Below are positions 755 to 16,663 of a stretch of DNA of 64,000 nt, one piece after another. Source of the DNA: an uncultured Desulfospira sp. (GTDB lineage Bacteria > Desulfobacterota > Desulfobacteria > Desulfobacterales > Desulfobacteraceae); contig OY760175.1 in assembly GCA_963663165.1 (NCBI GenBank), positions 4,448,001 to 4,512,000 on the forward strand. Reading direction: 5' to 3'. The notes beneath the pieces were generated by a model. It was given only the letters and a program-made list of their open reading frames with translations, did not search any database and was not told the origin of the DNA. The stretch's first letter is position 1. Each line of letters begins with the position of its first letter. The position numbers and the translations under genes were made by a program.

Positions 755-997
755 TGCCCGAGGTTATTTGAAATCCTGGTGGCGTTGTATTCATAAAGGA
801 TTTTCATGGGGCATAATCCGCCAAAAACCTTCAGGGGTACGCAATAAACCTTTAATGGTTCGCCTGCCTTTATTTGCCTATTGTATAACAGCCGCAGACT
901 GATTGGGTTAGTCCGAAATATCCGGGTTGGGCGGCGAAAAATTGTCCACAACGAATATTGAAAGAATCATTTTTCAGGAGGCTTTCCGGCATCGTGA
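755..997 (+). pseudogene. Possible decayed ECF S-component (MptD-like) 3' remnant
   Basis: Broken-frame fragments GYLKSWWR, MVRLPLFAYCITAA and RILK-NHF...SGIV resemble the C-terminus of such S-components (recalled consensus KLLKKHFxKAGIV) and lie directly before ecfT. Confidence 0.3.
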
Positions 998-1011
998 GAG
1001 ACGGGCTTTTA

Positions 1012-1764
1012 ATGAAAAGCGGTAAGCCGCTGACAGACAGGTGTGCGGTGTTATGTTCCATGATTTATTCCCTGGATGAACGGGCCAAGCTGGCCGGTGC
1101 GGTTTTAACTGTTTTTGCGTCACTGGCCTGTATTCAATGGGAATGCCAGCTTGTTCTTCTGGCGGCATCGCTGCTGCTCTGCCTTGCCTGCCGGGCCGTG
1201 GCAGGGGTTCTGGTTTTTACAGGCGTTGCTGTCCTGCTGGCCGCCGGTATCTTTTTATACCACGGGATAACCGGGTCCCAGACCCTTACCGGTATGGGGC
1301 TCCTGTTTCTGGCTCTCAAGTTCGGCCCCATGTGCGCCATGATTGTCTTTTTGTACAAAGCTGTGGATACCACCCTTTTTTTAAGGGCCATGGCCAAAAT
1401 GAAGGTCCCGGCCATGATCCTTTTGCCCCTTGGGGTCACCTTGCGGTTCATGCCGTCGTTTGTCCGGGAATTTTCCCATGTCCGGGATGCGTTGGCCTTC
1501 AGGGGGCTTGTCCTGTCGCCCGCAACGGTTTTAGCCCATCCTTTCCGGGTGATGGAATCGGTTTTAATCCCGCTGCTGATGCGGTCTGTTTTTATCGGGG
1601 AAGAGTTGTCTCGGGCGGCCCTGGCCAGGGGAATTGATGCCCCGGGCGAACCGGTCAGTATTTACGAGATCCGCTTTTCATTAAAGGATCTGGCATGGAC
1701 GGGCAGCTGGGCTGCCGGTGCTTTTGCGATCCTTTTCTGGGATTGGCGGATGGGGGGAATGTGA
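1012..1764 (+). CDS. ecfT: Energy-coupling factor transporter transmembrane component T
   Basis: LDERAKL, LRFMPSFVRE..RDALAFRG, IPLLMRS..EELSRAALARG motifs; start uncertain (958, 1012 or 1060). Confidence 0.85.
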   Translation: MKSGKPLTDRCAVLCSMIYSLDERAKLAGAVLTVFASLACIQWECQLVLLAASLLLCLACRAVAGVLVFTGVAVLLAAGIFLYHGITGSQTLTGMGLLFLALKFGPMCAMIVFLYKAVDTTLFLRAMAKMKVPAMILLPLGVTLRFMPSFVREFSHVRDALAFRGLVLSPATVLAHPFRVMESVLIPLLMRSVFIGEELSRAALARGIDAPGEPVSIYEIRFSLKDLAWTGSWAAGAFAILFWDWRMGGM

Positions 1765-3275
1765 TCCGGATTAAAAATTTAAGCTTTACCTACAAACCGG
1801 ACAAAACCGGCTGGATACTTAAGGATGCCTGCCTGGATGCCGCACCCGGGGAATGCATCCTGGTCTGCGGGGCCAGCGGGTGCGGGAAAACCACCCTGAC
1901 CCGGGCCGTTAACGGATTGATTCCCCATTTTGAAAAAGGGTGGCGGGCCGGCCGGGTCCTGGTGAACCGGGCCGGGGCTTACCGGGATGTTAAGCATTTC
2001 AGACCCCATGAATTGGCCCGGATCATGGGATCTGTATTCCAGGACCCAAGATCCCAGTTTTTTACCACCCGGGTAGAAGATGAGGTTGTCTGGGGATGTG
2101 AGAACTTAAAATTTGAAAAGAAAAAGATGACGGATCGCCTGGCGCAGGCCCTTTCCCTGTTCAACCTGGAACATCTGCGGGACAGGAACGTGTTTGAACT
2201 GTCCAACGGGGAAAAGCAGCGGGCCGTGTTTGCCTCGGTTTGGGCCATGGAACCCGGCATCTATGTTTTGGATGAGCCCTCATCCAACCTGGACCCGGGG
2301 TCGGTTCAAAATTTACGCTGGATTATCCGCCGGCTCAAAGGAAAAGGCCACACCGTTGTGATTGCCGAGCACCGCTTATATTACCTGGCCGGCCTGATTG
2401 ACCGCATGGTGGTCATGGACCGGGGAAAAATTAAAGCCTGTTACCAGGGCGGGGAAATTCAAGCGCTTTCATCTTCAGCCCTTGAAACCCGGGGGCTTCG
2501 CAGAATGGATCCGGCACACCTTGAGTTTAACGGAGGATCGGGGAGTGCCGGTGCCGGCGGTTCCGGGAAGGTCGGCCGCCAGGACCTGGTGCTTAATAAC
2601 CTGGGATTCCGGCACAAAGGAGACGCCAACCCGGTGATTAGAGATGTCAGCTTTACCATTTCAAGGGGAGAAATTTTAGGGATTTGCGGTCCCAACGGGT
2701 CAGGGAAAACCACCCTGTGCCGGCTGGTCTCAGGCTTGATCCGGAAGACAACAGGTGAGGTCTGCCTTGGCAGCACCCCGTTGCCGGCCAAAGAGCGGCT
2801 TAAGATCTGCCATCTGGTGCTCCAGCAGGCAGACCATCAATTGTTCAGGGCCAGTGTCCGGCAGGAAGTTTTGTCCATGCCCCGGTGCGCAGGAAAAGAC
2901 CGTTTTGCCATAGAGGAGATCCTTCAGTGCCTGGGCCTGCTGGACCTGGCCGATTGTCATCCCCAGGCCTTGTCCGGGGGGCAGAAGCAGCGCCTGTCCA
3001 TTGCCTGCGCCCTGGCCAGGGCCCCGGATTTTTTGATCCTTGATGAGCCCACATCCGGCATGGATGCCGGGCATATGAACCGCCTTGCCGGCCTGCTCAA
3101 GGCGTTTGCCGAAAGGGGCCGCGCTGTGGTGGTGGTCACCCATGATGCGCAGTTTATGGCAAAGACCTGTGCCCGGGCTGTGCTTCTGGATCAGGGCCGG
3201 GTAAGGATGAACCTGGATCTTTCAGAACCCCATAAGGAATTTAACGATTATCTAACCCAGGGAATTTTACCCTGA
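1761..3275 (+). CDS. ECF/ABC ATPase with duplicated nucleotide-binding domains (A-A' fusion)
   Basis: Two Walker A (GASGCGKT, GPNGSGKT), signatures LSNGEKQR and LSGGQKQR, two LDEP Walker B; GTG start overlaps the ecfT stop. Confidence 0.9.
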   Translation: MIRIKNLSFTYKPDKTGWILKDACLDAAPGECILVCGASGCGKTTLTRAVNGLIPHFEKGWRAGRVLVNRAGAYRDVKHFRPHELARIMGSVFQDPRSQFFTTRVEDEVVWGCENLKFEKKKMTDRLAQALSLFNLEHLRDRNVFELSNGEKQRAVFASVWAMEPGIYVLDEPSSNLDPGSVQNLRWIIRRLKGKGHTVVIAEHRLYYLAGLIDRMVVMDRGKIKACYQGGEIQALSSSALETRGLRRMDPAHLEFNGGSGSAGAGGSGKVGRQDLVLNNLGFRHKGDANPVIRDVSFTISRGEILGICGPNGSGKTTLCRLVSGLIRKTTGEVCLGSTPLPAKERLKICHLVLQQADHQLFRASVRQEVLSMPRCAGKDRFAIEEILQCLGLLDLADCHPQALSGGQKQRLSIACALARAPDFLILDEPTSGMDAGHMNRLAGLLKAFAERGRAVVVVTHDAQFMAKTCARAVLLDQGRVRMNLDLSEPHKEFNDYLTQGILP

Positions 3276-3365
3276 AAGACCGTGGCGGCCTAAATTTTCG
3301 TTTAAGGTCCGCCCGCAGCAAGAGTGAAAAAAAGAACCGTTTTAAGCTGTACCAACCCGCGGACA

Positions 3366-3400
3366 ACTAACAGCTAATGGCTAACAGCTAACAGCTAATC
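3366..3400 (+). repeat. Heptamer tandem repeat family A (GCTAAYR)x5
   Basis: actaaca gctaatg gctaaca gctaaca gctaatc, directly before the RBS aaaggagg. Confidence 0.85.
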
Positions 3401-3411
3401 AAAGGAGGACC

Positions 3412-4431
3412 ATGGAAACCATAACCGACACCGGCATTAACTACCGAAGCATTGAACAGATGCTTTTCAGCAGTATTAAATCAAGGCTGTTGCTTTGTGC
3501 CATCAAGCTTAAAGTGTTTGACCTGCTCGATACCCCGGCCGAGAGTGAAACCGTGGCGGCAGCGCTGAACACCCACCCGGACAATACACGGCTGATGCTC
3601 AAGGGGCTTACGGCCTGCGGCCTTGTCCGGTATAAAGAGGGGAAATATGAAAATACAGGAGAATCAAACGCCTTTCTTAGGTCAAAAAGCGCGGCCTGCA
3701 TCACCGGATGGCTGGACCAGGCCGCCGGGATGTTCGGCCCGATCCTGGATAATTTTGAAACCCTGGTTAAGAAAGGTCCCACGCCTCCCGGGCCGGACAC
3801 CCATATGAACTCTGAGGCCATGTGCGAATTTTATACCCATGCCCATGCCCAGACCGAACTTGCCGGGGTGGCCGCCAAAACCGCCGGGATTGTCCGGGAC
3901 CTGTCTGAATTTTCAAGCATGAAGAAAATGCTGGATCTCGGGGGCGGGCCGGGGTTGAATTCAGTTGCCATTGTCCAGGCCCATGACACCCTTGAAAGCG
4001 TGGTGTTTGACAGGGCATCCGTGGCGGCCATTGCCCGGGCGTATATTGAACGGTTCGGCTGTGTCGGCCGGATCACCACGCTTTCAGGCGATTACACCAA
4101 AGATGACCCGGGAAACGGGTATGATCTGGTGCTGGCTTCAGATACCCTGTATTATGAGGGAAGCGAACTGGAACGGATTGCTGCCCGGGTTTATGATGCC
4201 TTAAATCCCGGCGGGGTACTGGTAGGGATTCACGGGGTGGTGACCAAGGACCGGACCGGCCCCGGGCCCATGGTCCTGGGCATGCTGCCCGATGCCCTTA
4301 TGGGCCAGGGGGAACTGCCCTGCGAAGGGTTTCTGGCACCGGCCCTGCTCCGGGCCGGGTTCAAACAGGTGCAGACCAGAAAAATGTTCATGGTATCTAA
4401 TGAAATGGAGGTAGACATCGCAAGAAAATGA
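3412..4431 (+). CDS. SAM-dependent O-methyltransferase (dimerisation HTH plus Methyltransf_2 type)
   Basis: N-terminal AIKLKVFDLL/wHTH region, MLDLGGGPG SAM motif; strong RBS. Confidence 0.85.
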   Translation: METITDTGINYRSIEQMLFSSIKSRLLLCAIKLKVFDLLDTPAESETVAAALNTHPDNTRLMLKGLTACGLVRYKEGKYENTGESNAFLRSKSAACITGWLDQAAGMFGPILDNFETLVKKGPTPPGPDTHMNSEAMCEFYTHAHAQTELAGVAAKTAGIVRDLSEFSSMKKMLDLGGGPGLNSVAIVQAHDTLESVVFDRASVAAIARAYIERFGCVGRITTLSGDYTKDDPGNGYDLVLASDTLYYEGSELERIAARVYDALNPGGVLVGIHGVVTKDRTGPGPMVLGMLPDALMGQGELPCEGFLAPALLRAGFKQVQTRKMFMVSNEMEVDIARK

Positions 4432-5246
4432 AACGTATCGTTGAATCTTTATCCAATCATGCCAATGAATATATCCGCTGCCTGGCCGGTTCCCATCCGT
4501 TACGAAAGCCGGTTCTCAGTGCCATGCTGGACTTTCTTTCCCTTGAGGGCAAAGGGCTTGATGTCGGCTGCGGCATCGGGCTTCCCGCTGTGGAGATGGC
4601 CCTGAAAGGCCTTGATGTGACCGGCCTTGACCGGGAAGGGGAGTTTATCGAAATTGCCCGGGGGACTGCCGAAACACTCGGGCTTAAAGACTCCCCGGTT
4701 TTTGTCCGGGGGGATGCCGGCCGCCTTGAATTTGAAGCCGATTGTTTTGACTGGGCCTGGAGCATGGATTGTGTCAATTACGCCAAAGGCCTGAATACCA
4801 CCCCTTTATCGGAAATGAAACGGGTGACAAAACCCGGGGGACGGCTGATCCTTTCCGCCTGGTCTTCCCAGATGCTGCTGCCGGGATATCCAATGCTGGA
4901 GGCCCGGTTGAACACAACCCCTGAGGGGTTGGCCCCCTTTGAGGCCGGCATGGCCCCGCTGCACCACTTCATGGCCACGGCAGGGGTATTCAAACAGATG
5001 GGCCTGAAAGCCGTTCGGTGCCAAACTTTTTTACGGGACATTTCCCTGCCTTTGTCCAGCGGGGAAACACAGGCCATGAAAGATATATTTTACATGCGCT
5101 GGTCAGGTTCTCCGTCCGGGCTGGCGCCTGGGGAAAAATCCCTGTACACGGCCCTGACCGATCCTGAGTCTGACCGGTTTGTCCTTTTAGAGCCCGGGTT
5201 TTACGGATTTTTTACCTATACGATGTTCACCGGTGTGGTGCCGTAA
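4428..5246 (+). CDS. Class I SAM-dependent methyltransferase
   Basis: LDVGCGIG, GDA..LEF, RVTKPGG motifs; ATGA overlap with the upstream gene. Confidence 0.9.
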   Translation: MKRIVESLSNHANEYIRCLAGSHPLRKPVLSAMLDFLSLEGKGLDVGCGIGLPAVEMALKGLDVTGLDREGEFIEIARGTAETLGLKDSPVFVRGDAGRLEFEADCFDWAWSMDCVNYAKGLNTTPLSEMKRVTKPGGRLILSAWSSQMLLPGYPMLEARLNTTPEGLAPFEAGMAPLHHFMATAGVFKQMGLKAVRCQTFLRDISLPLSSGETQAMKDIFYMRWSGSPSGLAPGEKSLYTALTDPESDRFVLLEPGFYGFFTYTMFTGVVP

Positions 5247-5432: not shown

Positions 5433-6443
5433 TCACCATGTGGCCGGCTGGCTCTTCCGGGCTGTCGCCTCTTTAAGGAGGGTGACCGGCGGATAGTTGA
5501 ACTGCCGGGTAAAGGCTCGGGTAAAATGGGCCCGGTTGGCATACCCGACCTGATAGGCCACCTCTGATACGGTGGTGTCCCCTTTTTCCAGCAGTTCATG
5601 TCCCTTTTCCATTCTCCTGGAAAGGACATAGGCCGAAATTGTGGTGTGGAACAGGTGCTTAAATCCTTTTTTCAATTTGGTCTGGTTCAGCCCGGTTTGC
5701 CGGGCAAGTGCCGCCAAGGTCGGCGGGTCGTGATACTGCCGGTCCAGGATTTGGCGGACCTGGTACAGCTGTTCTTTTTCACGGCTGGAGGGAAGGCGGC
5801 CATGGGCCTCAGGGAGAGAAGGAGATTTGAAGCGGCCCATGGCCAGCGCAATGATTTCCAAAGATTTGGCGGTCAGATAAATGGTTTTTGCGGTTCCCGT
5901 GAACCGGCAATCCATTAACTGCCGGGCCGCCATCCCCATGGAAGGACTTAAACTGTTTTTGACATACGGCAGCGGTTCAGATGCTTGGGCCTTTGCAAAA
6001 GGCAGGCCGCCCATGATGCGTTTGCTCATCTCCCGGTAAGGCAGCCTGTCCGGTTCAATCAGCAGACTGATCAGCAGGATGGGGTCATGGGGCATGCCCT
6101 CAATGATGCCATTATCCAGGTCAGATCCGGACAAGCACATCTCGAACTGCCCCGGCAGGGTCTGGTATGTGGGAACCGGCCCGGGCCGGTCCTGGGTCCA
6201 GTTGAGCCGGCCGGACATGCAAAGGGTGATTCCCAAAAAATAATGTTCAGGAATTACCCGGGCACACAGTTGTTCTTTTAAGGTATAATGTTCCAGGTAA
6301 AGCTTTAATCCTGGCTCCAGGGATATTTCCCTGCGGTACCCTTTGCCGATGGCATGGGGCAGGGTTCGCACAGTTTCAGCCCCATCCCGGGCAGGATGTC
6401 CTCCATAGCACTGAAACTGTTCAAATAATCTGGATGTATTCAT
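5433..6443 (-). CDS. AraC-family transcriptional regulator, PchR/YbtA-like
   Basis: PPTLAALARQTGLNQTKLKKGFKHLF...VSEVAYQVGY.NRAHFTRAFTRQF. Confidence 0.9.
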   Translation of the reverse strand: MNTSRLFEQFQCYGGHPARDGAETVRTLPHAIGKGYRREISLEPGLKLYLEHYTLKEQLCARVIPEHYFLGITLCMSGRLNWTQDRPGPVPTYQTLPGQFEMCLSGSDLDNGIIEGMPHDPILLISLLIEPDRLPYREMSKRIMGGLPFAKAQASEPLPYVKNSLSPSMGMAARQLMDCRFTGTAKTIYLTAKSLEIIALAMGRFKSPSLPEAHGRLPSSREKEQLYQVRQILDRQYHDPPTLAALARQTGLNQTKLKKGFKHLFHTTISAYVLSRRMEKGHELLEKGDTTVSEVAYQVGYANRAHFTRAFTRQFNYPPVTLLKEATARKSQPATW

Positions 6444-6602: not shown

Positions 6603-8711
6603 CTATCTGGCCGGGGATCGTGATATTTTGGCCTCGTCAAAGGATGCCATTTCGCTCATGATCCGGCATGCGGTCTGGGCAAGCTCAATGGCCAGGGCCG
6701 CGCCCGTGGCTTCTCCCAACCGCATGTCCAGATCCATTACGGGTTCAAGTCCCATGTATTCCAGGGCGGCGGCCTGGGCCGGTTCCACGGATTTATGGCC
6801 GCAGATAAGATACCCCCGGATTTGGGGGCAGAGCATATAGGCCAGAAGGCCTGCTGCCGTGGAGATAACCCCGTCCAGAACCACGGCGCACCCCTTTGAT
6901 GCGGCGGCCAGGGCCGCACCGGCAATGCCGGCCAGTTCAAATCCCCCAAGCTTCATGAGAACATCAAGCCCCTCTTCCGGGTCAATGGCGTGGAAATGAA
7001 GTATTTTTTCAACTACCTCTGCCTTATGGGACAGCCCTTTGTTGTCCAGGCCGATTCCCCTGCCCGTGGCCTGTGCCGGTGAAAGGCCTGTGACAGCACA
7101 GATTATGGCCGTGGCGCTGGTGGTATTGCCGATGCCCATTTCTCCCAACCCCAGGATCTGGGGGGGCTCCGGGTCGCTGACGGCGGCAAACGCCCGGATC
7201 CCGTTTTCAAGGGCCTGTACCGCCTCATCCCGGGTCATGGCAGGTTCTAAGGCCATGTTCCTGGTTCCTGACGCCACCTTGGCCCGGATCAGGTCCGGGT
7301 GGGGGGAAAAGTCTTTGTCCACCCCCATGTCCACCACCTTCATGTCAATGCCGTGACAGCGGCAGATCACGTTGATGGCGGCCCCGCCGTTAAGGAAATT
7401 ATCCACCATCTGCCCGGTAACCTCCCGGGGAAATGCCGACACTCCTTCTTCGGTAACCCCATGGTCTGCGGCAAACACCAGGACCGCTTTTTTCCGGATA
7501 GCCGGTTTCAGGCTGTTCTGGATAACGGCCATCTGCACCCCTAAGCCTTCTAATTTTCCAAGGGAGCCCAGGGGCTTGCTTTTATCGTCCATTTTGGCAC
7601 GGGCTTCAGGGCCGAGGGTGCCTGCCGGGTCAATTCCCTTGATGGTGTCCATGATTAACCGGCTTTGAGAAATTGTGGTGAAGGAAGAGAGGGCCTCCTG
7701 TTTTTTCGGCAGGGCCTGATCCCGGGCCGATGTCTTAGTGGTTTTTCCGGTAAAATCCAGGATATATTTAAAGGCCTTGCCTTTTAATACTTTTGGAAGC
7801 ACTTGCGGTGCCTGTTCCGGCTGAACCACCCCTTCAATTAGCCGGGCCAGGGATTTTTCATGGGAAATCAAAAAGGGGACACCCCGTTCCATATCTGATT
7901 TTTTCATGCCATAGGCCCCTGAAATGGCAATTTCCTTGTAGTGGATCAGGTTCAGCAGGTTGGTTTCAATGGATTCATTTTTGGTGATGCCGGAAAAAAA
8001 GGAGAAATGGCCGCCCTTGTCCACCTTGGTAAGGGCCTGGCTAAAGGCAATATAATCGGGACAGGCATTAATCACGATATCAAACCGACTGTCATGGGTT
8101 TCCTTGGCACAGGCCAGGTCTTCCGCCGCCAAAACAGGGGCGATTTTCTGGATTTTTACCTCATCCTTTTCCAGGATAAAGGGCTCAAGGCCCCGGTGCC
8201 GGGCATAAATGGCCGTGATCAGCCCCATGGTGCCCCCGCCGTAAACAAGGATCCGTTTGCCCGGGGTAACGGGAAATTGATCAAAGGCGTTGACCACGCA
8301 TCCCACAGGTTCGGCGAAACAGGCCACATGGGTATCCAGTTCGTCTGGTGCGGGAATAAGGCTTGCCAGGGGCACCACGGCTTTGTGGGCAAATCCGCCG
8401 TCCCGGTGAAACCCGATAATTTTCATTTCATCACAAAGGTTTTCCCTGCCGGATCTGCAATAAGAACAGGTCCCGCAGCTGGTTCCCGGCCAGACCAAAA
8501 ACCTTTGGCCGTCCCGGGCAAGGACCACCATCTCATGGCCTAACACCCGGGGAAACACCAAATCCCGCTGTCCCTGCACCCACATCTTGGCATCGGTCCG
8601 GCAGACAGCACAGGCCAGCACATCCACCAGGACTTCATCAGGTCCGGGTTCCCGGACAGGCAGCGGCTGGATTTCAAGTTTTCCCAACCCTGTCAGCACC
8701 ATTTGGATCAT
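6603..8711 (-). CDS. cobT: Fusion: Zn-dependent medium-chain dehydrogenase (N-terminal) and nicotinate-nucleotide-dimethylbenzimidazole phosphoribosyltransferase CobT (C-terminal)
   Basis: MDR motifs CAVCRTD, GHE, CGTCSYCRSGRENLC, GGGTMG; CobT motifs KPLGSLGKLE, AADHGV, GEMGIGNTT, RLGEATGA; one uninterrupted frame of 702 aa. Confidence 0.92.
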   Translation of the reverse strand: MIQMVLTGLGKLEIQPLPVREPGPDEVLVDVLACAVCRTDAKMWVQGQRDLVFPRVLGHEMVVLARDGQRFLVWPGTSCGTCSYCRSGRENLCDEMKIIGFHRDGGFAHKAVVPLASLIPAPDELDTHVACFAEPVGCVVNAFDQFPVTPGKRILVYGGGTMGLITAIYARHRGLEPFILEKDEVKIQKIAPVLAAEDLACAKETHDSRFDIVINACPDYIAFSQALTKVDKGGHFSFFSGITKNESIETNLLNLIHYKEIAISGAYGMKKSDMERGVPFLISHEKSLARLIEGVVQPEQAPQVLPKVLKGKAFKYILDFTGKTTKTSARDQALPKKQEALSSFTTISQSRLIMDTIKGIDPAGTLGPEARAKMDDKSKPLGSLGKLEGLGVQMAVIQNSLKPAIRKKAVLVFAADHGVTEEGVSAFPREVTGQMVDNFLNGGAAINVICRCHGIDMKVVDMGVDKDFSPHPDLIRAKVASGTRNMALEPAMTRDEAVQALENGIRAFAAVSDPEPPQILGLGEMGIGNTTSATAIICAVTGLSPAQATGRGIGLDNKGLSHKAEVVEKILHFHAIDPEEGLDVLMKLGGFELAGIAGAALAAASKGCAVVLDGVISTAAGLLAYMLCPQIRGYLICGHKSVEPAQAAALEYMGLEPVMDLDMRLGEATGAALAIELAQTACRIMSEMASFDEAKISRSPAR

Positions 8712-8911
8712 GACAAATCCTCTTCTGTTAACACCAGTTTTTTAATCGTGACCTTCGGATATCCTTTTTCTGAGGCCTGCCGCATAAGCTTTCTGACCTC
8801 TTCCAGCCGGTCCATGGGAAAGACCGACGCCTTGTCCAGGCCGACCTCAAGAATGCCGCTGTCCTTAAATCTTAAATATGTATGGTGGGATTTTATAATC
8901 AACAGTTCCAT
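8708..8911 (-). CDS. Small hypothetical protein (67 aa) in the B12 operon
   Basis: AAGGA RBS, 10 nt after the trpD-like stop; its stop overlaps the start of the fusion gene (ATGA). Confidence 0.75.
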   Translation of the reverse strand: MELLIIKSHHTYLRFKDSGILEVGLDKASVFPMDRLEEVRKLMRQASEKGYPKVTIKKLVLTEEDLS

Positions 8912-8921
8912 GATGGTGTCC

Positions 8922-10031
8922 TTAAACCAGTGAATGAAGGGTGTTTAATCCTTTCTCAGGATGACTGTTCTGGGCCGATACCCAGTTTTCCAGGGTTTCA
9001 AAGGCCCTGCCGTTTTCCAGGAGGCAGGCGGCCTGTTCAATGCCCTGGTCCAGGTCGTTGGCCTTGCCGGCGCAAAGCAAGATCAGGCCGGCATTGAGAA
9101 TGGCCGCATCTTTTCGGGCGCTGCTTTCCCTTCCGGCCATGAGCCTTGCAAATCGTTTCACCTCCCGGTCCATTTCAGGTTCCGGCCTTAAATCTTCACA
9201 GGATGAGGCGGCCAGTCCCAGGGGCCTGGGGTCAATGGTGAAACGCTTGATCTGTGCCTGGCCGGTTGTTTTATCGGTTGAGATTTCAGCGCAACGGGTC
9301 TGGCCGCAGACCGAAGCCTCATCCATGCCCTGTCCTGAACCGTCTACCCGTCCGTGAAGCACAATAGCCCGGGTATAGCCGATTTCTTTCATGACCTTGG
9401 CCACCGGCATGATCATTTCCTCAGCGTATACCCCCCGGACGCCAATGGACGGCAGGGCCGGGTTGGCCAGGGAGGCGGCAATGTTCAGGGTGGACCCGAA
9501 ATAAAGCTGGGAGAGAATCCGGCCCAGGGCATTGGGGTGAATCTTAGGGCTCATCCCGTTGAACAGCCCCAATCCGGCAGACTGGATGCTTTTGGCCACA
9601 GTCTGGGCGGAACACTCCACATCCACCCCTAAAGATTCGGCCATATCCACCGTGCCGCAGGTCGAGGTAATGGCCCGGGCCCCGTGCCGGGCCATGGGAA
9701 CGCCTCCTGCGGCGGCTATAATGGATGAGGCAGTGGAAATATTAAAGGTTTTAAAAGAGTCCATGCCGGTTCCGGAATTTTCCGCGACCGCCAGGTCCAG
9801 GGCTACTTTGGTGGTGTCCAACTCGTAAATGGCTTCCCAGGCCCCGGCCACTTCTTCAGCACTTTCGCCTTTGGCGGTAAGGGCGGCCAGAAAGGCCCCC
9901 TGCTGGATCTGGGTGGTGGCATTGCTGAGAATGGTGGAGAACGCCTCAAAGGCGGCTTCCCGGCTTAGATTTTCCTTGTTGATGAGGCGGGTGATGACAG
10001 CCCCAAAGGCCCTATCGGTTTTTATGGTCAT
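8922..10031 (-). CDS. Anthranilate phosphoribosyltransferase (TrpD)-like paralog, glycosyltransferase family 3
   Basis: GAFLAALTAKGESAEE, SGTGMD..TFNIST, RHGAR, GMDE motifs; GGAGG RBS; no other trp genes nearby. Confidence 0.85.
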   Translation of the reverse strand: MTIKTDRAFGAVITRLINKENLSREAAFEAFSTILSNATTQIQQGAFLAALTAKGESAEEVAGAWEAIYELDTTKVALDLAVAENSGTGMDSFKTFNISTASSIIAAAGGVPMARHGARAITSTCGTVDMAESLGVDVECSAQTVAKSIQSAGLGLFNGMSPKIHPNALGRILSQLYFGSTLNIAASLANPALPSIGVRGVYAEEMIMPVAKVMKEIGYTRAIVLHGRVDGSGQGMDEASVCGQTRCAEISTDKTTGQAQIKRFTIDPRPLGLAASSCEDLRPEPEMDREVKRFARLMAGRESSARKDAAILNAGLILLCAGKANDLDQGIEQAACLLENGRAFETLENWVSAQNSHPEKGLNTLHSLV

Positions 10032-10113
10032 AAGAATCCTCCAAATACTTCCCTGGTGTCGGGAAAATTATTCAACAGGACCTTATTCCAGCGGCAATCC
10101 TTTGGCGCTTTTT

Positions 10114-10376
10114 TGTCCGGGCAGGCTTTCCGGCTTGCGGATCACTCTAATTGCTGCACCTTCCCCTGAATTGAGCTATTAGCTTTTAGCCGTTAGCCAT
10201 TAGCTTTCGGCTAACGGCTAATGGTTTATAGCTAACAGCTTTTTCACAGAGTGGCATATTGCAGGTTTCGTCCCCGCTTACGGCAACGGCTGGTATGCAA
10301 CGGATTTTCACCGTTTTTCCTTTTACCCCGGATCCCGCTTTCAGTTAAAAAGCCGGGAAACCCAGGCACCCTGACA
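10114..10376 (-). ncRNA. Cobalamin (B12) riboswitch
   Basis: Minus strand: AGGGTGCC...TAAAAGGAAAAACGGTGAAAATCCGTTGC...GCCGTAA...GCCACT...GGGAAGG...AAGCCGGAAAGCCTGCC; P1 TGTCAGGG/CCCGGACA; upstream of the cobT-containing operon. Confidence 0.9.
10174..10240. repeat. Family A heptamer hairpin inside the riboswitch
   Basis: agctattagcttttagccgttagccattagc-tttcg-gctaacggctaatggtttatagctaacagct, near-perfect inverted repeat of GCTAAYR units. Confidence 0.85.
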
Positions 10377-10385
10377 GTGACGTAA

Positions 10386-10415
10386 ATTATAAGGATTACA
10401 AGGGGGTTTTGTCAA
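10386..10415 (-). promoter_or_regulatory. Sigma70 promoter for the riboswitch operon
   Basis: Minus strand TTGACA-N18-TATAAT, both hexamers perfect, ending about 10 nt before the riboswitch 5' end. Confidence 0.8.
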
Positions 10416-10445: not shown

Positions 10446-10991
10446 TTACCGCCGCCCACCCCGTAAAAAACCGAAGACGGCACCGATACATCCGCCGGCC
10501 AGGTGGCCGAACTGGGAGATATTGTCGGTTTTAAAGATGTCGGTCAGCTCAGAGCCAATGTAAATGGCGGCAATAAGGATAAAGGTTAACGGGATCTCCC
10601 GGCTCCTGAAATTGGAAAAAGAACCCAGCAGGATCATCATAAACACCAGGCCGCTGCCGCCGATCAGGCTGGTGTGAAACAGGGCGGCATTGAATAACGC
10701 CGTTGCGGCCGCCGTGATGACAAACATTTCAAAGAGCCGCCAGGACCCGTATTTTTCCTCTAAAAGCGGGCCTAAAAGCAGGATGAAAATGATATTTCCT
10801 TTAAAATGAGTCCATCCGGCGTGGGCCAGGACATGGGTAAACAGCCTGATGTAAAACTTCGGGTCTGAAAAGGCCATGTGGGAAGGGGAGGAAAGGCTCA
10901 GTCCCGTAAAATTTGAAACCGGCAGCAGCAGGCAGATCAGGGCCAGAATGCCGTAGGTAAGAATAACAGGGGAGTTGTATCTGATTTTCAT
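10446..10991 (-). CDS. Rhomboid family intramembrane serine protease
   Basis: FTHVLAHAGWTHFKGN, LEEKYGS, GGSG catalytic Ser, GHLAG catalytic His; AGGAGG RBS. Confidence 0.9.
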   Translation of the reverse strand: MKIRYNSPVILTYGILALICLLLPVSNFTGLSLSSPSHMAFSDPKFYIRLFTHVLAHAGWTHFKGNIIFILLLGPLLEEKYGSWRLFEMFVITAAATALFNAALFHTSLIGGSGLVFMMILLGSFSNFRSREIPLTFILIAAIYIGSELTDIFKTDNISQFGHLAGGCIGAVFGFLRGGRR

Positions 10992-11488: not shown

Positions 11489-12280
11489 ATGCCGGCCCGC
11501 GTCACCACGTCAAGTTTGATGAAAATGAAACAGGAAGGGAAAAAAATTACCGCCCTGACCGCATATGACTATCCTTTTGCCTCTTTGCTGGACCAGGCCG
11601 GGATCGACATGATCCTGGTGGGGGATTCTTTGGGGATGGTGGTTCAGGGAAAAGAGACCACCCTGCCCGTTACCATGGATGAGATGATCTACCATACGGC
11701 CATGGTGTCACGGGCCTGCCAATACTCAATGGTGGTGGGGGATATGCCGTTTATGTCCTATCAGGTCTCGTTGGACAAAGCTGTTGAAAATGCAGGACGG
11801 ATCATCAAGGAAGGTCTCGCCCAGGCCGTAAAGCTTGAAGGCGGGGCCGATGTCTGCCCGGCCATTAATGCCATGGCAAAGGCCGGGATTCCGGTTCAGG
11901 CCCATATCGGCCTGACCCCCCAGTCGGTCCACCAGATGGGCGGGTTCAAGGTCCAGAGGGATGAAGAGCGCCTGTTAAAGGATGCTAAGGATGTGGAAAA
12001 TGCCGGGGCTTTTTCCGTTGTTTTGGAAGGGATTCCATCCCCCATCGCCGCAAAGATCACCCAGGCCCTGGCCATCCCCACTATTGGTATCGGGGCAGGG
12101 GCCGGATGTGACGGGCAGATCCTGGTTCTTCACGACATGCTGGGCATCAATGACCGGTTTTTGCCCAAGTTTGTCAAAAAGTATGCGGACCTGGCCATTG
12201 AGGCCAAAAAAGGTGTGGCCGCCTACATTGAAGAGGTCAGGCAGGGAACCTTTCCCTCTGAAGATTATGAATACAAATAA
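11489..12280 (+). CDS. panB: 3-methyl-2-oxobutanoate hydroxymethyltransferase
   Basis: [41 protein letters not shown]. Confidence 0.97.
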
Positions 12281-13390: not shown

Positions 13391-14332
13391 ATGCAAAAAG
13401 AGTCTAAAAAAACGTTTTACGAAAAGTTGGAAGCAAAAGGGGTCTCAAGAAGGGATTTCCTCAAGTACTGTACTGCCCTTACCGCTACCATGGGATTGTC
13501 CTACTCCTGTGTGGGCAAGGTCGCCGAGCAGATTGAACAGGCCGCAGCAACCCGGCCGCCTGTGGTCTGGCTGCATTTCAGTGAATGCACCGGCTGTTCG
13601 GAAGCCTTCCTGAGGACACCGGATGTGGGGGGCATTATCCTTGAAACCATTTCAGTTGAGTACCATGAAACCATCATGGCCGCAGCCGGCCATCAGGCCG
13701 AAAAGAACCTGCATGACGCCGTTGAAAAGTACACCGGTAAATTCGTATGTGTCGTGGAAGGCGCTATTGCCACCAATTACAACGGGGCCTACGGCAAAGT
13801 TGCCGGCAGAACTTTCCTGGAAATCGCCAAGGATGTCGTGCCCAAGGCCGCGGCAACCATCTGTCTGGGAACCTGTGCCTGTTACGGCGGCGTAGCGGCA
13901 GCCGCTCCCAACCCGGGTGGATACAAGGGCGTGGGTGATGCGCTGGGCATCTCCCCCATCAACCTCCCCGGTTGTCCCACCAATCCCCTTAACCTGCTGG
14001 GGACCATTCTCAAATACCTGAACAATGAAGCCATGGAGCTGGACGATTACGGCAGGCCCATGTTCGCCTATGGCGAGACGGTTCACGACAACTGCCCCCG
14101 GCTTAAGCATTACGAAGAAGGCAATTTTGTTGAAGAATTCGGGTCCAAGGAAGCTGAAATGGGCTACTGTCTTTACCAGATGGGCTGTAAAGGGCCTGAA
14201 ACCTATAATAACTGTCCTACTGCAAAATTTAATGATGCCACCAGCTTTCCCATCCAGGCCGGCCATCCCTGCATCGGATGCAGCGAGCCTGACTTCTGGG
14301 ACAGCATGACACCGTTTTACGAAGAATCTTAA
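13391..14332 (+). CDS. Periplasmic [NiFe] hydrogenase small subunit
   Basis: Tat signal SRRDFLKYC; ECTGCSE, GTCACYGG, LPGCP, HDNCPR, CLYQMGCKGP, HPCIGCSEPDFWD; no C-terminal membrane anchor. Confidence 0.96.
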   Translation: MQKESKKTFYEKLEAKGVSRRDFLKYCTALTATMGLSYSCVGKVAEQIEQAAATRPPVVWLHFSECTGCSEAFLRTPDVGGIILETISVEYHETIMAAAGHQAEKNLHDAVEKYTGKFVCVVEGAIATNYNGAYGKVAGRTFLEIAKDVVPKAAATICLGTCACYGGVAAAAPNPGGYKGVGDALGISPINLPGCPTNPLNLLGTILKYLNNEAMELDDYGRPMFAYGETVHDNCPRLKHYEEGNFVEEFGSKEAEMGYCLYQMGCKGPETYNNCPTAKFNDATSFPIQAGHPCIGCSEPDFWDSMTPFYEES

Positions 14333-14337
14333 CCGCC

Positions 14338-14404
14338 ACTGACGGCTAACGATTAACAGTTAAAAGCTAATGGCTGACGGCTAACCGTTAAAAGCCAACA
14401 GCTT
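14338..14404 (+). repeat. Family A heptamer tandem array (about 9 units)
   Basis: actgacg gctaacg attaaca gttaaaa gctaatg gctgacg gctaacc gttaaaa gccaaca, just before the large-subunit RBS. Confidence 0.8.
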
Positions 14405-14420
14405 ACGAAAGGATATTATT

Positions 14421-16058
14421 ATGGGTAAAAGAATTATTGTTGACCCGATTACCAGAATCGAGGGTCATTTGAGAATCGAAGTTGAAGTTGAAAACGGCAA
14501 AGTCAAGGATGCCTGGAGTTCAGGGCAGATGTTCCGGGGTATTGAGATGATGCTCCAGGGCCGGGATCCTCAGGATGCCCACCATTTTGTACAAAGGTCC
14601 TGCGGGGTCTGTACCTATATTCATGCCCTTTCTTCTGTCAGGGCTGTGGAAGATGCCTGTAACATTGAAATCCCTGAGAATGCCCGAATTATCCGGAACC
14701 TGCTTCACGGGGCCCAGTACCAGCATGACCATATTGTTCATTTTTATCACCTCCACGCCCTGGACTGGGTGGATATTGTCAGCGCCCTGTCAGCAGATCC
14801 GGTTAAAACCGCTAAACTTTCGGAAAATGTGTCCGGACGTCCCCAGAGTTCAGAATATTTCAAAACGGTTCAGACCAAGCTGACAACCTTTGTCAACAGC
14901 GGTCAGCTCGGCCCGTTTAACAACGCTTACTGGGGCCACTCCGCCTATCAGCTGCCGGCAGAAGCCAATCTCATGGCGGCTTCCCATTACCTGGAAGGCA
15001 TCAAACTCCAGGCCAAAGCCGCCCGGATGCATGCCATTTTCGGCGGCAAAAACCCCCATCCCCAGTCCCTGGTGGTGGGCGGTGTCACCTGTGTGGGCGA
15101 CCTGACCCCGGAAAGAATTGATGAGTTCGTGGATATCTGGAAAGAAACCAAAGCCTTTGTGGACGAAGTGTATCTGCCGGATCTCCTGGCCGTGGCCTCT
15201 TTTTATAAAAATTGGGGCGCCATTGGCGGAAACAACGACACCTTCCTGGCTTATGGCGACTTCCCCCAGAAAAATATCAATGACGACCTGCTGCTTCCCA
15301 GCGGGGTTCTTTTAGGAGACCTTAGCCCCAAAGCCGTGGATACTCAAAAAATCACTGAGGACGTTACCCGGTCCTGGTATGAAGACGGCAGCGCCAAACA
15401 TCCCTATGAGGGGGAAACCAAGCCCATCAAGGGTGAAGTGACCTACAACACGGAGGATAAGTACTCCTGGATAAAAGCCCCCCGGTATGCGGGCAAATCT
15501 GCTGAAGTCGGCCCCCTTTCAAGGGTTCTCGTGGCCTATACCAGCGGCCAGGAACACGTAAAGAAACTGGTGGACCATACCCTTAAAACCCTGGACGTGA
15601 AAACCGATGCCCTGTTCTCCACCCTGGGCAGAACCGCTGCCCGGGCCATTGAAACCGTGGTGGTCGGTGATGCCATGGAAGGATGGATTGATACCCTTAA
15701 ATCCAACATTTCTGCGGGCAACAAAAAGACCTACCAGTCCTGGACCATGCCGGACAAGGGCAGGGGATACGGCCTCAATGATGTTCCCCGGGGCGCTCTG
15801 GGCCACTGGATCGATATTGAGGGCGGCAAGATCAAAAATTACCAGTACGTGGTTCCCTCCACCTGGAACCTTGGTCCCAGCGACGCCTCAAATCAGAAAG
15901 GGCCTGTGGAAAGCTCTTTGATCGGCACCCCCATTGCCGATCCCCAAAAGCCCCTGGAAGTGTTGAGAACCGTCCATTCCTACGATCCGTGCATTGCCTG
16001 TGCCATACACGTGATTGATCCGCATACTAACGAAACCTATAAGGTAAGAGTGATATAG
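14421..16058 (+). CDS. Periplasmic [NiFe] hydrogenase large subunit (group 1)
   Basis: DPITRIEGH, RSCGVC, DPCIACAIH followed by a cleavable C-terminal tail; Cys, not Sec. Confidence 0.97.
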   Translation: MGKRIIVDPITRIEGHLRIEVEVENGKVKDAWSSGQMFRGIEMMLQGRDPQDAHHFVQRSCGVCTYIHALSSVRAVEDACNIEIPENARIIRNLLHGAQYQHDHIVHFYHLHALDWVDIVSALSADPVKTAKLSENVSGRPQSSEYFKTVQTKLTTFVNSGQLGPFNNAYWGHSAYQLPAEANLMAASHYLEGIKLQAKAARMHAIFGGKNPHPQSLVVGGVTCVGDLTPERIDEFVDIWKETKAFVDEVYLPDLLAVASFYKNWGAIGGNNDTFLAYGDFPQKNINDDLLLPSGVLLGDLSPKAVDTQKITEDVTRSWYEDGSAKHPYEGETKPIKGEVTYNTEDKYSWIKAPRYAGKSAEVGPLSRVLVAYTSGQEHVKKLVDHTLKTLDVKTDALFSTLGRTAARAIETVVVGDAMEGWIDTLKSNISAGNKKTYQSWTMPDKGRGYGLNDVPRGALGHWIDIEGGKIKNYQYVVPSTWNLGPSDASNQKGPVESSLIGTPIADPQKPLEVLRTVHSYDPCIACAIHVIDPHTNETYKVRVI

Positions 16059-16146
16059 GTTGATAGACTGAAGGCTGAAGGTGGATAGACTTAAAGGATG
16101 ATCAGAGCACTGACTTCCTTCAGCCTAAACACCTTCAGTCTAAACC
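16058..16146. repeat. Family B inverted repeat (AGACTGAAGGCTGAAGG / CCTTCAGCCTA)
   Basis: ggttgatagactgaaggctgaaggtggatagac...ccttcagcctaaacaccttcagtctaaacc. Confidence 0.85.
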
Positions 16147-16159
16147 CCTAAAGAAGATT

Positions 16160-16663
16160 ATGAATGACAATATTACCGTTCTTGGCGTGGGCAACATCCT
16201 TTACAGTGATGACGGCGTGGGCGTGCGCGTGGTTGAAGCGCTCATGGCGGCATACGAATTTTCAGACAACGTTTCCGTGGTGGACGGCGGGGTTTTGGGA
16301 ATCAACCTGCTGGGGGTGATTTCCAGTGCCGGCCGGCTCATTGTGGTGGATACGGTGTTAAATCATGGAAAGCCCGGTGATTTTCACCGTCTGGAACATG
16401 ACCAGATCCCGGACCGGATTCTGGCCAAGAACTCCCTTCACCAGGTGGACCTGATTGAGGCCCTGACCCTGTGCAAAGCCCTGGACCATGTGCCCCGGAC
16501 CACCATCATCGGCATTGAGCCTGAAGACTTAAATACCCTAAGCGACAAGCTGACCCCAACCATCCAGAACAAACTGGAAGAACTGACCCAAAAAGTCCTG
16601 GAGGAAGTCGGTAAACTCGGGGGCTCCTACACGCCTAAAAACGGGCAGCCTAAATCTTGTTGA
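16160..16663 (+). CDS. Hydrogenase maturation protease (HyaD/HybD family)
   Basis: VLGVGNILYSDDGVG, VDGG, SLHQ, IGIEP. Confidence 0.95.
   Translation: MNDNITVLGVGNILYSDDGVGVRVVEALMAAYEFSDNVSVVDGGVLGINLLGVISSAGRLIVVDTVLNHGKPGDFHRLEHDQIPDRILAKNSLHQVDLIEALTLCKALDHVPRTTIIGIEPEDLNTLSDKLTPTIQNKLEELTQKVLEEVGKLGGSYTPKNGQPKSC

Follow-up and report, generated by a model that had tools for sequence, protein, structure and literature searches.

In an uncultured Desulfospira sp., a cobalamin-riboswitch operon that joins a TrpD-like phosphoribosyltransferase, a small conserved protein and a dehydrogenase fused to CobT may encode an undescribed route of lower-ligand supply, self-contained and repressed by B12, which would depend on PRPP and NAD(P) and feed its own dedicated CobT; we give this reading about an even chance of being correct. 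The operon lies on the minus strand of the window (the whole 64 kb stretch analysed, C1:4448001-4512000), in the order promoter, cobalamin riboswitch, TrpD paralogue (TrpDL), 67-aa protein (small67) and Zn-MDR dehydrogenase::CobT fusion. The literature searches made returned no description of such a module. An earlier note had read these genes as a lower-ligand or linker module, which is supported by the analysis, with a biochemical role that is suggested by genomic context.

The operon is headed by a predicted sigma-70-type promoter, TTGACA-18-TATAAT (10386..10415, minus strand), which matches the consensus at 12/12 positions and the 3′ end of which reaches the first bases of the aptamer. A scan of the whole 4.4 kb found three promoter-like sites versus 2.7 expected in shuffles, and the weight therefore lies with the perfect match and its position only. 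Directly downstream is the cobalamin riboswitch aptamer (RF00174; 10103..10388, minus strand), which scores 71.2 bits in Rfam (gathering threshold 31.5; E 1.4e-15), covers the whole model (1-189 of 189), has 75 extra nucleotides inserted in one peripheral stem, and is the sole Rfam match within the window. The ATG of TrpDL follows on the same strand, 71 nt past the aptamer end, and the expression platform in between (10032..10102, minus strand) carries a GGAGG ribosome-binding site 6 nt before this start codon. The leader scan detected nothing resembling a terminator in this interval, and in the minimum free energy fold the ribosome-binding site and start region are paired with upstream bases, at a z-score of only -1.43; from these two features we infer that the riboswitch probably acts at translation initiation. 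The genes themselves are closely packed, with 10 nt between TrpDL and small67 and a 4-nt overlap between small67 and the fusion gene. Promoter, riboswitch and tight gene spacing had all been claimed from the letters of the DNA, and all three are borne out.

TrpDL (369 aa; 8922..10031, minus strand) has the PF02885 and PF00591 domains, matches canonical TrpD over the full length of the fold and scores 237.3 bits against TIGR01245, above the cut-off of 199.05; its closest solved relative is 9ucw (264.6 bits). It is not the trpD of this genome: a canonical copy scoring 405.1 bits lies in a trpE-G-D-C-F operon at C1:2.25 Mb, which also settles the earlier concern that TrpDL might be the only trpD. 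The two paralogues are 34% identical, and TrpDL shares 30-37% identity with canonical TrpDs and 42-62% within its own subfamily, which is never the trp-operon copy. The subfamily signature consists of GTGMD, RHGAR, GMDE and an added C-terminal WVxxQN extension. Most PRPP-loop residues are kept, as is the metal-binding acidic pair G.DE, which is an invariant GMDE in both alignments (A1 and A2). In contrast, the GTGGD and KHGN(R) motifs, which we take to be substrate-binding in canonical TrpD, are shifted to GTGMD (333/336 homologues) and xHGA ([KR]HG[AS]R in 332/336; KHGN in none of the 336), and Leu occupies the column of the Arg that presumably binds the acceptor. The canonical TrpDs of this genome and of genome G231 have GTGGD and KHGNR. 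These changes suggest an acceptor site that has been remodelled next to a largely retained PRPP/Mg site.

The fusion gene (702 aa; 6603..8711, minus strand) encodes a dehydrogenase part and a CobT domain. Its Zn-dependent MDR dehydrogenase part (residues 1-320; 7752..8711, minus strand) has Pfam matches across residues 23-281, of which the GroES-like ADH_N (PF08240) lies above its cut-off (57.8 versus 23.5 bits) and the Rossmann ADH_zinc_N (PF00107) just below (30.9 versus 31.8 bits; 47.0 in the G160 orthologue). The motifs CRTD, GHE, EP and four Cys, presumably the catalytic Cys/His/Glu-type and structural zinc ligands, are at least 95% conserved in 79 orthologues and place the domain in the polyol/threonine-dehydrogenase branch of Zn-MDR enzymes, with 4ej6, a putative Zn-binding dehydrogenase, as the closest solved structure (111 bits). 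Unlike members of that branch, the domain matches no named equivalog and has a conserved motif of its own, CRTD.K..G.RDL..PR; L-threonine 3-dehydrogenase, its best NCBIfam match, was rejected as an assignment (104.4 bits versus a cut-off of 380 for NF003808; 103.5 versus 458.35 for TIGR00692).

The CobT domain (NaMN:base phosphoribosyltransferase; residues ~352-702; 6603..7658, minus strand) is a full-length match to TIGR03160 (419.5 bits, cut-off 319.3; profile positions 8-334 of 334) and to DBI_PRT/CobT (PF02277; 420 bits, residues 366-696). Its active-site segments, GEMGIGNTT and MRLGEATGAALA, align with their counterparts in 1wx1, 4hdk_A and 4kqj, and we assume for the Glu of the LGE motif the role that it has in Salmonella enterica CobT. 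The solved relatives include 1wx1, 4hdk (ArsA) and 1d0s, with ArsA in third place (241.9 bits), which we read as phylogenetic nearness only. ArsAB is a heterodimer of two tandem CobT homologues that activates phenolic bases, and was dismissed as a model for this operon, which has a single CobT domain. The module's CobT differs from others in its 320-residue N-terminal dehydrogenase and in its phylogeny: the MDR-fused CobTs, 65 rows in the tree, group in a single clade (SH-aLRT 100; stem length 1.0), apart from the CobTs that these genomes have next to ThiC-like genes and, here, from the stand-alone CobT.

The third protein, small67 (8708..8911, minus strand), is a conserved ORF with no Pfam or NCBIfam match; tblastn detected it in 64 of the 80 related loci. 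An alignment of 34 sequences shows the conserved pattern LLIIK...Y.R.K...LDKASVFP, and the AF2 model (pLDDT 96.6) has four strands, a helix and a further strand, for which Foldseek found no PDB fold at E<=1e-3 and the best VIA Z was 4.4. It might assist the fused form as an accessory subunit.

The genes are conserved as a set, whereas the earlier note had named a lack of joint conservation as grounds for refutation. Carriers in culture include Desulfospira joergensenii, Desulfocicer vacuolatum and Desulfogranum mediterraneum. Across the 80 related loci the dehydrogenase adjoins TrpDL in 76 and is in a single frame with CobT in 60, and 70 loci have a riboswitch-like element immediately 5′ of the genes in the same orientation, while 10 lack it (11 of 12 re-checked with Rfam were confirmed); the flanks are poorly shared, the largest flanking cluster being present in 14/80. 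In a sample of 301 genomes of the phylum, the TrpDL type was found in 11 and the MDR type in 12, with both in 10. In the two extra MDR-type genomes the neighbour of the dehydrogenase is a TrpD paralogue that is more divergent, in one case under a 97.6-bit cobalamin riboswitch, and four of the 12 MDR-type genomes lack the riboswitch. The MDR type occurs only next to TrpD-like genes or fused to CobT, and genomes with the pair or a TrpDL-like gene encode CobS (13/13) and CbiC (12/13). Unfused arrangements are also found: riboswitch-MDR-TrpDL-CobT-CobS in G231, directly downstream of the trp operon, this same arrangement extended by a CobD-type aminotransferase and CbiB in G034, and two-gene riboswitch operons of MDR and TrpDL distant from any CobT in G294, G279 and G152. 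As the fused or operon-borne CobT is the sole CobT of G145, G089, G231 and G034, it is functional.

In the proposed supply route, TrpDL would use PRPP to N-ribosylate a nitrogen nucleophile other than anthranilate, and the Zn/NAD(P) dehydrogenase would carry out a redox step on this ribotide or its precursor that yields or unmasks a heteroaromatic base. The fused CobT domain would take over the base directly and convert it with NaMN to the alpha-ribotide used by CobS, and plentiful cobamide would shut the operon through the riboswitch. Operons for anaerobic benzimidazole biosynthesis, the bza operons, were reportedly described by Hazra et al. 2015. A close parallel to the module is offered by these operons, which are organised, as summarised in PMC7617358, as cobalamin riboswitch, bzaAB or bzaF, cobT and bzaC/D/E. 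Both systems are led by a cobalamin riboswitch, have presumptive base-supply genes before or joined to cobT, sometimes with cobS, and form accessory modules of patchy occurrence among anaerobes; in distant genomes the MDR/TrpDL pair occupies the place of the bza genes in known operons. In contrast to bza operons, the module has no ThiC-family radical-SAM enzyme; its place is taken by a phosphoribosyltransferase of TrpD fold and a Zn-MDR dehydrogenase, and CobT is part of the same polypeptide as the dehydrogenase. A second parallel is BluB, the aerobic DMB synthase, in that benzimidazole would be supplied by one or two enzymes; BluB is unrelated to the module in sequence and requires O2 and FMNH2. 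In the last stages of BluB catalysis, an aryl diamine with a sugar-phosphate chain undergoes cyclisation and oxidation, with loss of erythrose 4-phosphate, and by analogy PRPP-dependent ribosylation together with a dehydrogenase could reach similar chemistry without O2. Certain sulfate reducers make 5-methylbenzimidazolyl cobamide. Several points count against base supply: the riboswitch is absent from some loci and genomes (see above), the module is present in only ~12 of the 217 CobT-positive genomes of the phylum sample, and the unfused gene order MDR-TrpDL-CobT differs from the pathway order TrpDL, MDR, CobT. Moreover, since purine bases need no dedicated synthesis, there is no strict need for a new base route in genomes without BzaF or BluB.

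The earlier note saw none of the BluB, Bza, ArsAB or CblS/CblT routes, which holds for the window and fails for the genome as a whole. Outside the window, at C1:5091993-5094621, lies a second locus, which that note did not mention, composed of an 84.7-bit cobalamin riboswitch, the genome's single ThiC-family (BzaF-type) gene (C1:5093087-5094343) and a stand-alone cobT. The module is thus an additional system here and not the sole possible base supply. Such a second-type, lower-scoring ThiC-family gene is found in six of the 11 TrpDL-type genomes, this one included, so that the module is not simply a replacement for Bza, and it adjoins its own CobT in G000 (this genome), G206 and G160. G145 has no ThiC-family gene, G089, G231 and G034 have the high-scoring ThiC only, and BluB (TIGR02476) is above the cut-off in none of 11 module genomes (best 85.8 versus 150 bits).

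Two other assignments within cobamide synthesis are each rather unlikely. In one, TrpDL would make the beta-ribotide required by CobT from PRPP, either NaMN from released nicotinate or a pyridinium donor, so that nicotinate would be catalytic and the ribosyl group would come, on balance, from PRPP; the dehydrogenase would serve to prepare the carrier or to regenerate it. TrpD-fold enzymes convert alpha-PRPP to beta-N-ribotides by inversion, the configuration that the CobT donor needs; the close linkage and fusion of these genes to CobT would fit, as would the failure to find nadC in this genome or G206. However, 10 of the 12 module genomes have nadC and hence NaMN, cobamide flux is tiny relative to NAD flux, the conserved dehydrogenase would have no clear role, and most CobT-bearing genomes do without the module. 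The other, to which we assign a similarly small probability, places the dehydrogenase after activation: the fused CobT would make the alpha-ribotide of a common base, such as 5-hydroxybenzimidazole from a BzaF-type enzyme or a purine, and the dehydrogenase would then modify this ribotide, with TrpDL as an auxiliary. It would resemble BzaC, which according to Mathur et al. 2020 reportedly acts on the activated base, and is in line with the MDR::CobT fusion, which suggests consecutive steps, with the ThiC-like-CobT pair that often accompanies the fused form (as in the three genomes above) and with the O-methyltransferases (Dimerisation+Methyltransf_2 type) that are encoded within the G152 operon and, here, at a distance of 2 kb from the module. 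Against it stand the fused form without a BzaF-like gene in G145 and G089, the riboswitch-controlled pairs far from any CobT, and the lack of a defined role for TrpDL.

It is highly improbable that the dehydrogenase supplies the nucleotide loop with aminoacetone/aminopropanol or with a linker variant, as its L-threonine 3-dehydrogenase relatives, among the best-scoring named ones in NCBIfam and PDB, might suggest; the equivalog scores are far below the cut-offs (104 versus 380; 103.5 versus 458), the G034 operon already covers the usual linker route with its CobD-type aminotransferase and CbiB, and the obligate TrpD-like partner and CobT fusion would be unexplained. The slimmest chance is left to a role outside cobamide synthesis, as a spare anthranilate phosphoribosyltransferase or a B12-independent bypass repressed by B12 in the manner of metE, which could account for the TIGR01245 score, the two-gene operons without nearby cob genes and the position of the G231 module after the trp operon, but not for the canonical trp operon elsewhere, the altered acceptor-site motifs in 332-333 of 336 homologues, the fusion to CobT in most loci and the pair inside cobT-cobS-cobD-cbiB operons.

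The preferred reading remains dedicated lower-ligand supply. More broadly, the module is a set that recurs in many anaerobes, where it is likely to perform an undescribed step of assembling the lower part of B12-type cofactors.

The operon occupies the reverse strand and consists of a TrpD-like phosphoribosyltransferase gene (TrpDL; 8922-10031, 369 aa), a gene for a 67-aa protein (small67; 8708-8911) and a gene for a 702-aa single-frame fusion protein (MDR::CobT; 6603-8711), with a gap of 10 nt between the first two and an overlap of 4 nt between the last two. TrpDL contains both TrpD-fold Pfam domains and scores 237.3 bits with TIGR01245 (cut-off 199.05), and small67 matches no family in Pfam or NCBIfam. 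Residues 1-320 of the fusion form a Zn-type MDR dehydrogenase, for which the top NCBIfam match, L-threonine 3-dehydrogenase, reaches 104 bits, far under its cut-off of 380, and residues ~352-698 form a full CobT (TIGR03160, 419.5 bits against 319.3). The cobalamin riboswitch claimed in the earlier note was borne out by Rfam at 10388-10103 (-), with 71.2 bits over a gathering threshold of 31.5, E 1.4e-15 and all 189 model positions; no other Rfam family was found in the 64-kb window. A peripheral stem of the aptamer carries a 75-nt insertion (10170-10245, -), which contains the near-repeats GCTAAT.GCT / TAGCCGTTAGCC and could form a long hairpin; the aptamers at most related loci are ~180-230 nt long and lack it. 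Directly 5' of the riboswitch lies a perfect match to the promoter consensus, TTGACA-18-TATAAT (10415-10386, -), and, as promoter-like sites are not in excess over the region (3 found, 2.7 expected), weight is placed only on the perfectness of this match and its position. No terminator-like site was found between the aptamer and the start codon, and in the leader fold the GGAGG/ATG region pairs with upstream bases, at a z of -1.43 that is not significant; we infer that the riboswitch acts on translation.

On the downstream side of the operon, an AraC-type regulator (5433-6443, -) lies 159 nt beyond MDR::CobT, and 958-5246 (+) encodes a CbiQ-type ECF transporter component, a double ABC ATPase, an O-methyltransferase (Dimerisation and Methyltransf_2 domains) and a second SAM methyltransferase, an arrangement kept in a relative at 93% identity (locus L046). 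The operon of genome G152 also includes an O-methyltransferase with the Dimerisation and Methyltransf_2 architecture (L038:4493-5485). On the other side are an ordinary-looking rhomboid protease gene (10446-10991, -) and panB (11489-12280), followed by equally ordinary-looking genes for the small and large subunits of a NiFe hydrogenase and a maturation protease (13391-16663, +).

The concern raised in the earlier note, that the TrpD-like gene might be the only trpD of the genome, does not apply. The genome, a single contig (C1) of 6.74 Mb that is 96.7% complete, contains a second and far stronger TrpD match (405.1 bits, C1:2252424-2253404), which is flanked by chorismate-binding and GATase genes and by IGPS and PRAI genes and thus belongs to a trpE-G-D-C-F operon. 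The gene in the window is a paralogue, 34% identical to this canonical TrpD. It retains the G.DE metal motif and has GTGMD in place of the canonical GTGGD, RHGAR in place of KHGNR, a Leu at the column of the canonical Arg in the xRKE segment, and its own C-terminal addition, a WVxxQN...G segment. The changed positions are those that we take to be the PRPP- and anthranilate-binding residues of TrpD. Among 336 TrpDL homologues, which are the best 120 of each of three overlapping searches and were thus chosen as top matches, GTGMD is present in 333, [KR]HG[AS]R in 332 and KHGN in none. Judged from these residues, the acceptor pocket appears remodelled, for which reason the acceptor is predicted not to be anthranilate. 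In genome G231 a complete trpD-C-F-B-A operon is followed immediately by a riboswitch-MDR-TrpDL-CobT-CobS operon (L039, 6220-10697), and the canonical TrpD and TrpDL genes are thus 5 kb apart on the same strand.

A sample of 301 genomes from the phylum includes 11, the present genome among them, with a TrpDL-type match (265-458 bits, 42-62% identity); every other match in that search scores at most 178 bits. Of the 10 TrpDL loci taken from the sample, 8 have the MDR gene as a neighbour, the exceptions being G206, in which the dehydrogenase is encoded away from TrpDL as a stand-alone MDR::CobT gene, and G028, whose contig stops 150 nt before TrpDL on the upstream side; Rfam places a cobalamin riboswitch upstream in six of the ten. 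Two architectures can be distinguished. The fused type, riboswitch-TrpDL-small67-MDR::CobT, is found in the window, G145 and G089, and its gene order also in G160, where Rfam did not find a riboswitch. The unfused type, riboswitch-MDR-TrpDL, stands alone in G294, is followed by CobT and CobS in G231 and by CobT, CobS, a CobD-type aminotransferase and CbiB in G034, and is extended in G152 by an acyltransferase, an unknown 194-aa gene and an O-methyltransferase. In G089 the TrpDL match (L044/L015) is broken by one internal TAG and splits into two tblastn pieces that differ in frame, which could reflect either a pseudogene or an error of assembly; the MDR::CobT gene downstream is intact.

A pattern scan of a species-genome collection returned 559 relatives, and the best 80 of these 559 loci were kept, all of them from Desulfobacterota by title, generic labels aside. 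The joint conservation of the module genes predicted earlier holds in this set: MDR adjoins TrpDL in 76 of 80 loci, and three of the other four end at a contig edge within 212 nt. The remaining one, L102, has 7 kb available and truly lacks the neighbour; it has a riboswitch and TrpDL (3100-4179), and MDR, small67 and CobT are absent within the 7 kb downstream. MDR and CobT share one open frame in 60 loci and do not do so in 4 (one of which, L045, has only a CobT fragment), and MDR lacks a CobT match in 12, of which 5 are cut within 500 nt and 7 continue for 1,160 nt or more. In 64 loci small67 was found. Riboswitches were surveyed with an nhmmer profile seeded by six Rfam-confirmed aptamers and run for two iterations, which matched directly upstream and on the same strand in 70/80 loci (two of these being short pieces), 22-354 nt from the start codon. 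When 20 loci were re-checked by Rfam at the gathering threshold, the riboswitch was recovered in 11 of the 12 that had a full nhmmer match, the remaining one being truncated at the contig start; the one short-piece locus was not confirmed, and none of seven nhmmer negatives had a riboswitch. The genes on either side of the module show no conservation, and the largest cluster among them is present in 14/80 loci. In five loci (L035, L080, L095, L096 and L106) TrpDL is preceded by a SKI-family gene. Shikimate kinase was rejected as part of the module: this gene is the sole SKI-family gene of G206 and hence most likely a housekeeping aroK.

In the 301-genome sample the dehydrogenase is specific to the partnership with TrpD-like proteins. 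The MDR domain is found at E <= 1e-35 in 12 genomes, ten of which are TrpDL genomes; in the other two, G264 and G279, it adjoins a more divergent TrpD paralogue (31-32% identity) with GTGSD and KKGA at the two motif positions. The G279 pair lies behind a cobalamin riboswitch (97.6 bits), and none was found at the G264 pair. An alignment of 79 MDR orthologues keeps CRTD, GHE, EP and four Cys at 95% or more, motifs to which we assign zinc-ligand roles, and this conservation is compatible with an active zinc enzyme. Small67 is a real protein, as seen from a conserved alignment of 34 sequences and an AF2 model with a pLDDT of 96.6. It occurs only with the fused architecture, and in G206 it stays beside TrpDL. 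Comparison of the model with the PDB gave no significant match, a likeness to the RuBisCO small subunit (Z 4.1 over 49 residues) being too weak, and an ESM Atlas search returned only hypothetical-protein clusters, all from the same phylum.

Of the known routes to the lower ligand, none of the 11 module genomes has a BluB over the cut-off; a ThiC-like gene of lower score is present in six of them, a high-scoring ThiC alone in four, and neither in G145. The sole ThiC-family gene of the present genome (C1:5093087-5094343) immediately precedes a stand-alone CobT and follows a cobalamin riboswitch (84.7 bits), not a TPP riboswitch (locus C1:5091993-5094621, L125:7979-10622). As NCBIfam calls it ThiC (554 bits) and the BzaB model reaches 478.7, under its cut-off of 700, its designation as BzaF-type is a tentative one based on context; if it is correct, a distinct ThiC to serve thiamine synthesis is lacking from the genome. 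G145, G089, G231 and G034 have no CobT other than the fused or operon one. A quickly computed ML tree was made from 76 CobT domains, after removal of rows in which under 300 query residues aligned. In this tree all 65 CobTs that are fused or adjacent to MDR group in one clade (SH-aLRT 100, stem length 1.0), the three ThiC-like-linked CobTs and that of G294 in a separate clade (99), and the two unfused-operon CobTs in a third (100). The fused CobT has Phe and Met where the S. enterica enzyme has S80 and Q88, presumably specificity positions; these were set aside as markers, since Thermus CobT and ArsA carry Tyr and Met there and the positions are not diagnostic. CobS is present in 13/13 genomes examined and CbiC in 12/13, the exception being G028, a doubtful member. 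Because CobT is found in 217/301 genomes of the sample, the module is a minority accessory of cobamide producers.

TrpDL extends beyond the phylum. The G034 protein retrieved homologues at 49-51% identity whose named sources are archaea (Candidatus Syntrophoarchaeum butanivorans, an archaeon and a Nitrososphaerales archaeon) and bacteria (Candidatus Formimonas warabiya, a Desulfitobacteriaceae bacterium and a Chitinispirillales bacterium), and all six have GTGMD and [KR]HGAR. TrpDL passes the curated TrpD model and is systematically mis-annotated, being labelled anthranilate phosphoribosyltransferase at source in Desulfobacterota, Firmicutes, Fibrobacterota-related bacteria and archaea. A full-text search, to which subscription journals are mostly closed, found no literature that ties cobT or the synthesis of lower ligands to trpD-like genes or MDR dehydrogenases; one paper names trpD and a dehydrogenase only in the legend of a Chlorobium gene-cluster figure, without comment (PMC8620254), and another concerns T-box trp operons (PMC12452182).

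Four features locate the module at the CobT step in the building of cobamides: the riboswitch, membership in cobT-cobS-cobD-cbiB operons, the fusion to CobT and the almost perfect pairing of two enzymes that have no other relation. TrpD-fold chemistry leads from PRPP to beta-N-ribotides, and the dehydrogenase would add one redox step. The most likely role, held with about even confidence, would be the supply of a base to a dedicated CobT. Supply of the donor for CobT seems improbable. Ten of 12 module genomes carry nadC, although a whole-genome search with TIGR00078 gave no match in the present 96.7%-complete contig or in its family-mate G206. Tailoring after activation is to be doubted to a similar degree as donor supply. 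Supply of the linker is very unlikely, and a function outside cobamide metabolism has about as slight a chance.

Base supply might, as a tentative suggestion, amount to a third lower-ligand route, in which TrpDL and the Zn dehydrogenase work without radical-SAM chemistry and without O2. An aromatic or heteroaromatic amine would be joined to PRPP, the ribosylamine cyclised or rearranged, and a benzimidazole- or purine-type base freed by NAD(P)-dependent oxidation straight into the dedicated fused CobT. The lower ligand determines whether a given organism can use a cobamide, and to our knowledge several natural lower ligands have no known biosynthetic genes; a riboswitch-controlled, widely conserved, CobT-fused module is a direct and testable candidate for a missing route or step, and the native cobamide can be measured because cultured carriers exist, namely Desulfospira joergensenii DSM 10085, Desulfocicer vacuolatum DSM 3385, Desulfogranum mediterraneum DSM 13871 and Desulfobacula phenolica. 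5-Methylbenzimidazolyl cobamides were the subject of a 1988 paper, and 5-methylbenzimidazole is reported for sulfate reducers; Desulfobacterium autotrophicum is absent from the named rows among the 120 matches listed for the Desulfocicer vacuolatum orthologue, most of which are nameless. If such a route exists, it would provide a gene basis for an orphan ligand such as the 5-methylbenzimidazole of sulfate reducers, and thousands of proteins of anaerobic bacteria and archaea now labelled ‘anthranilate phosphoribosyltransferases’ would need re-annotation.
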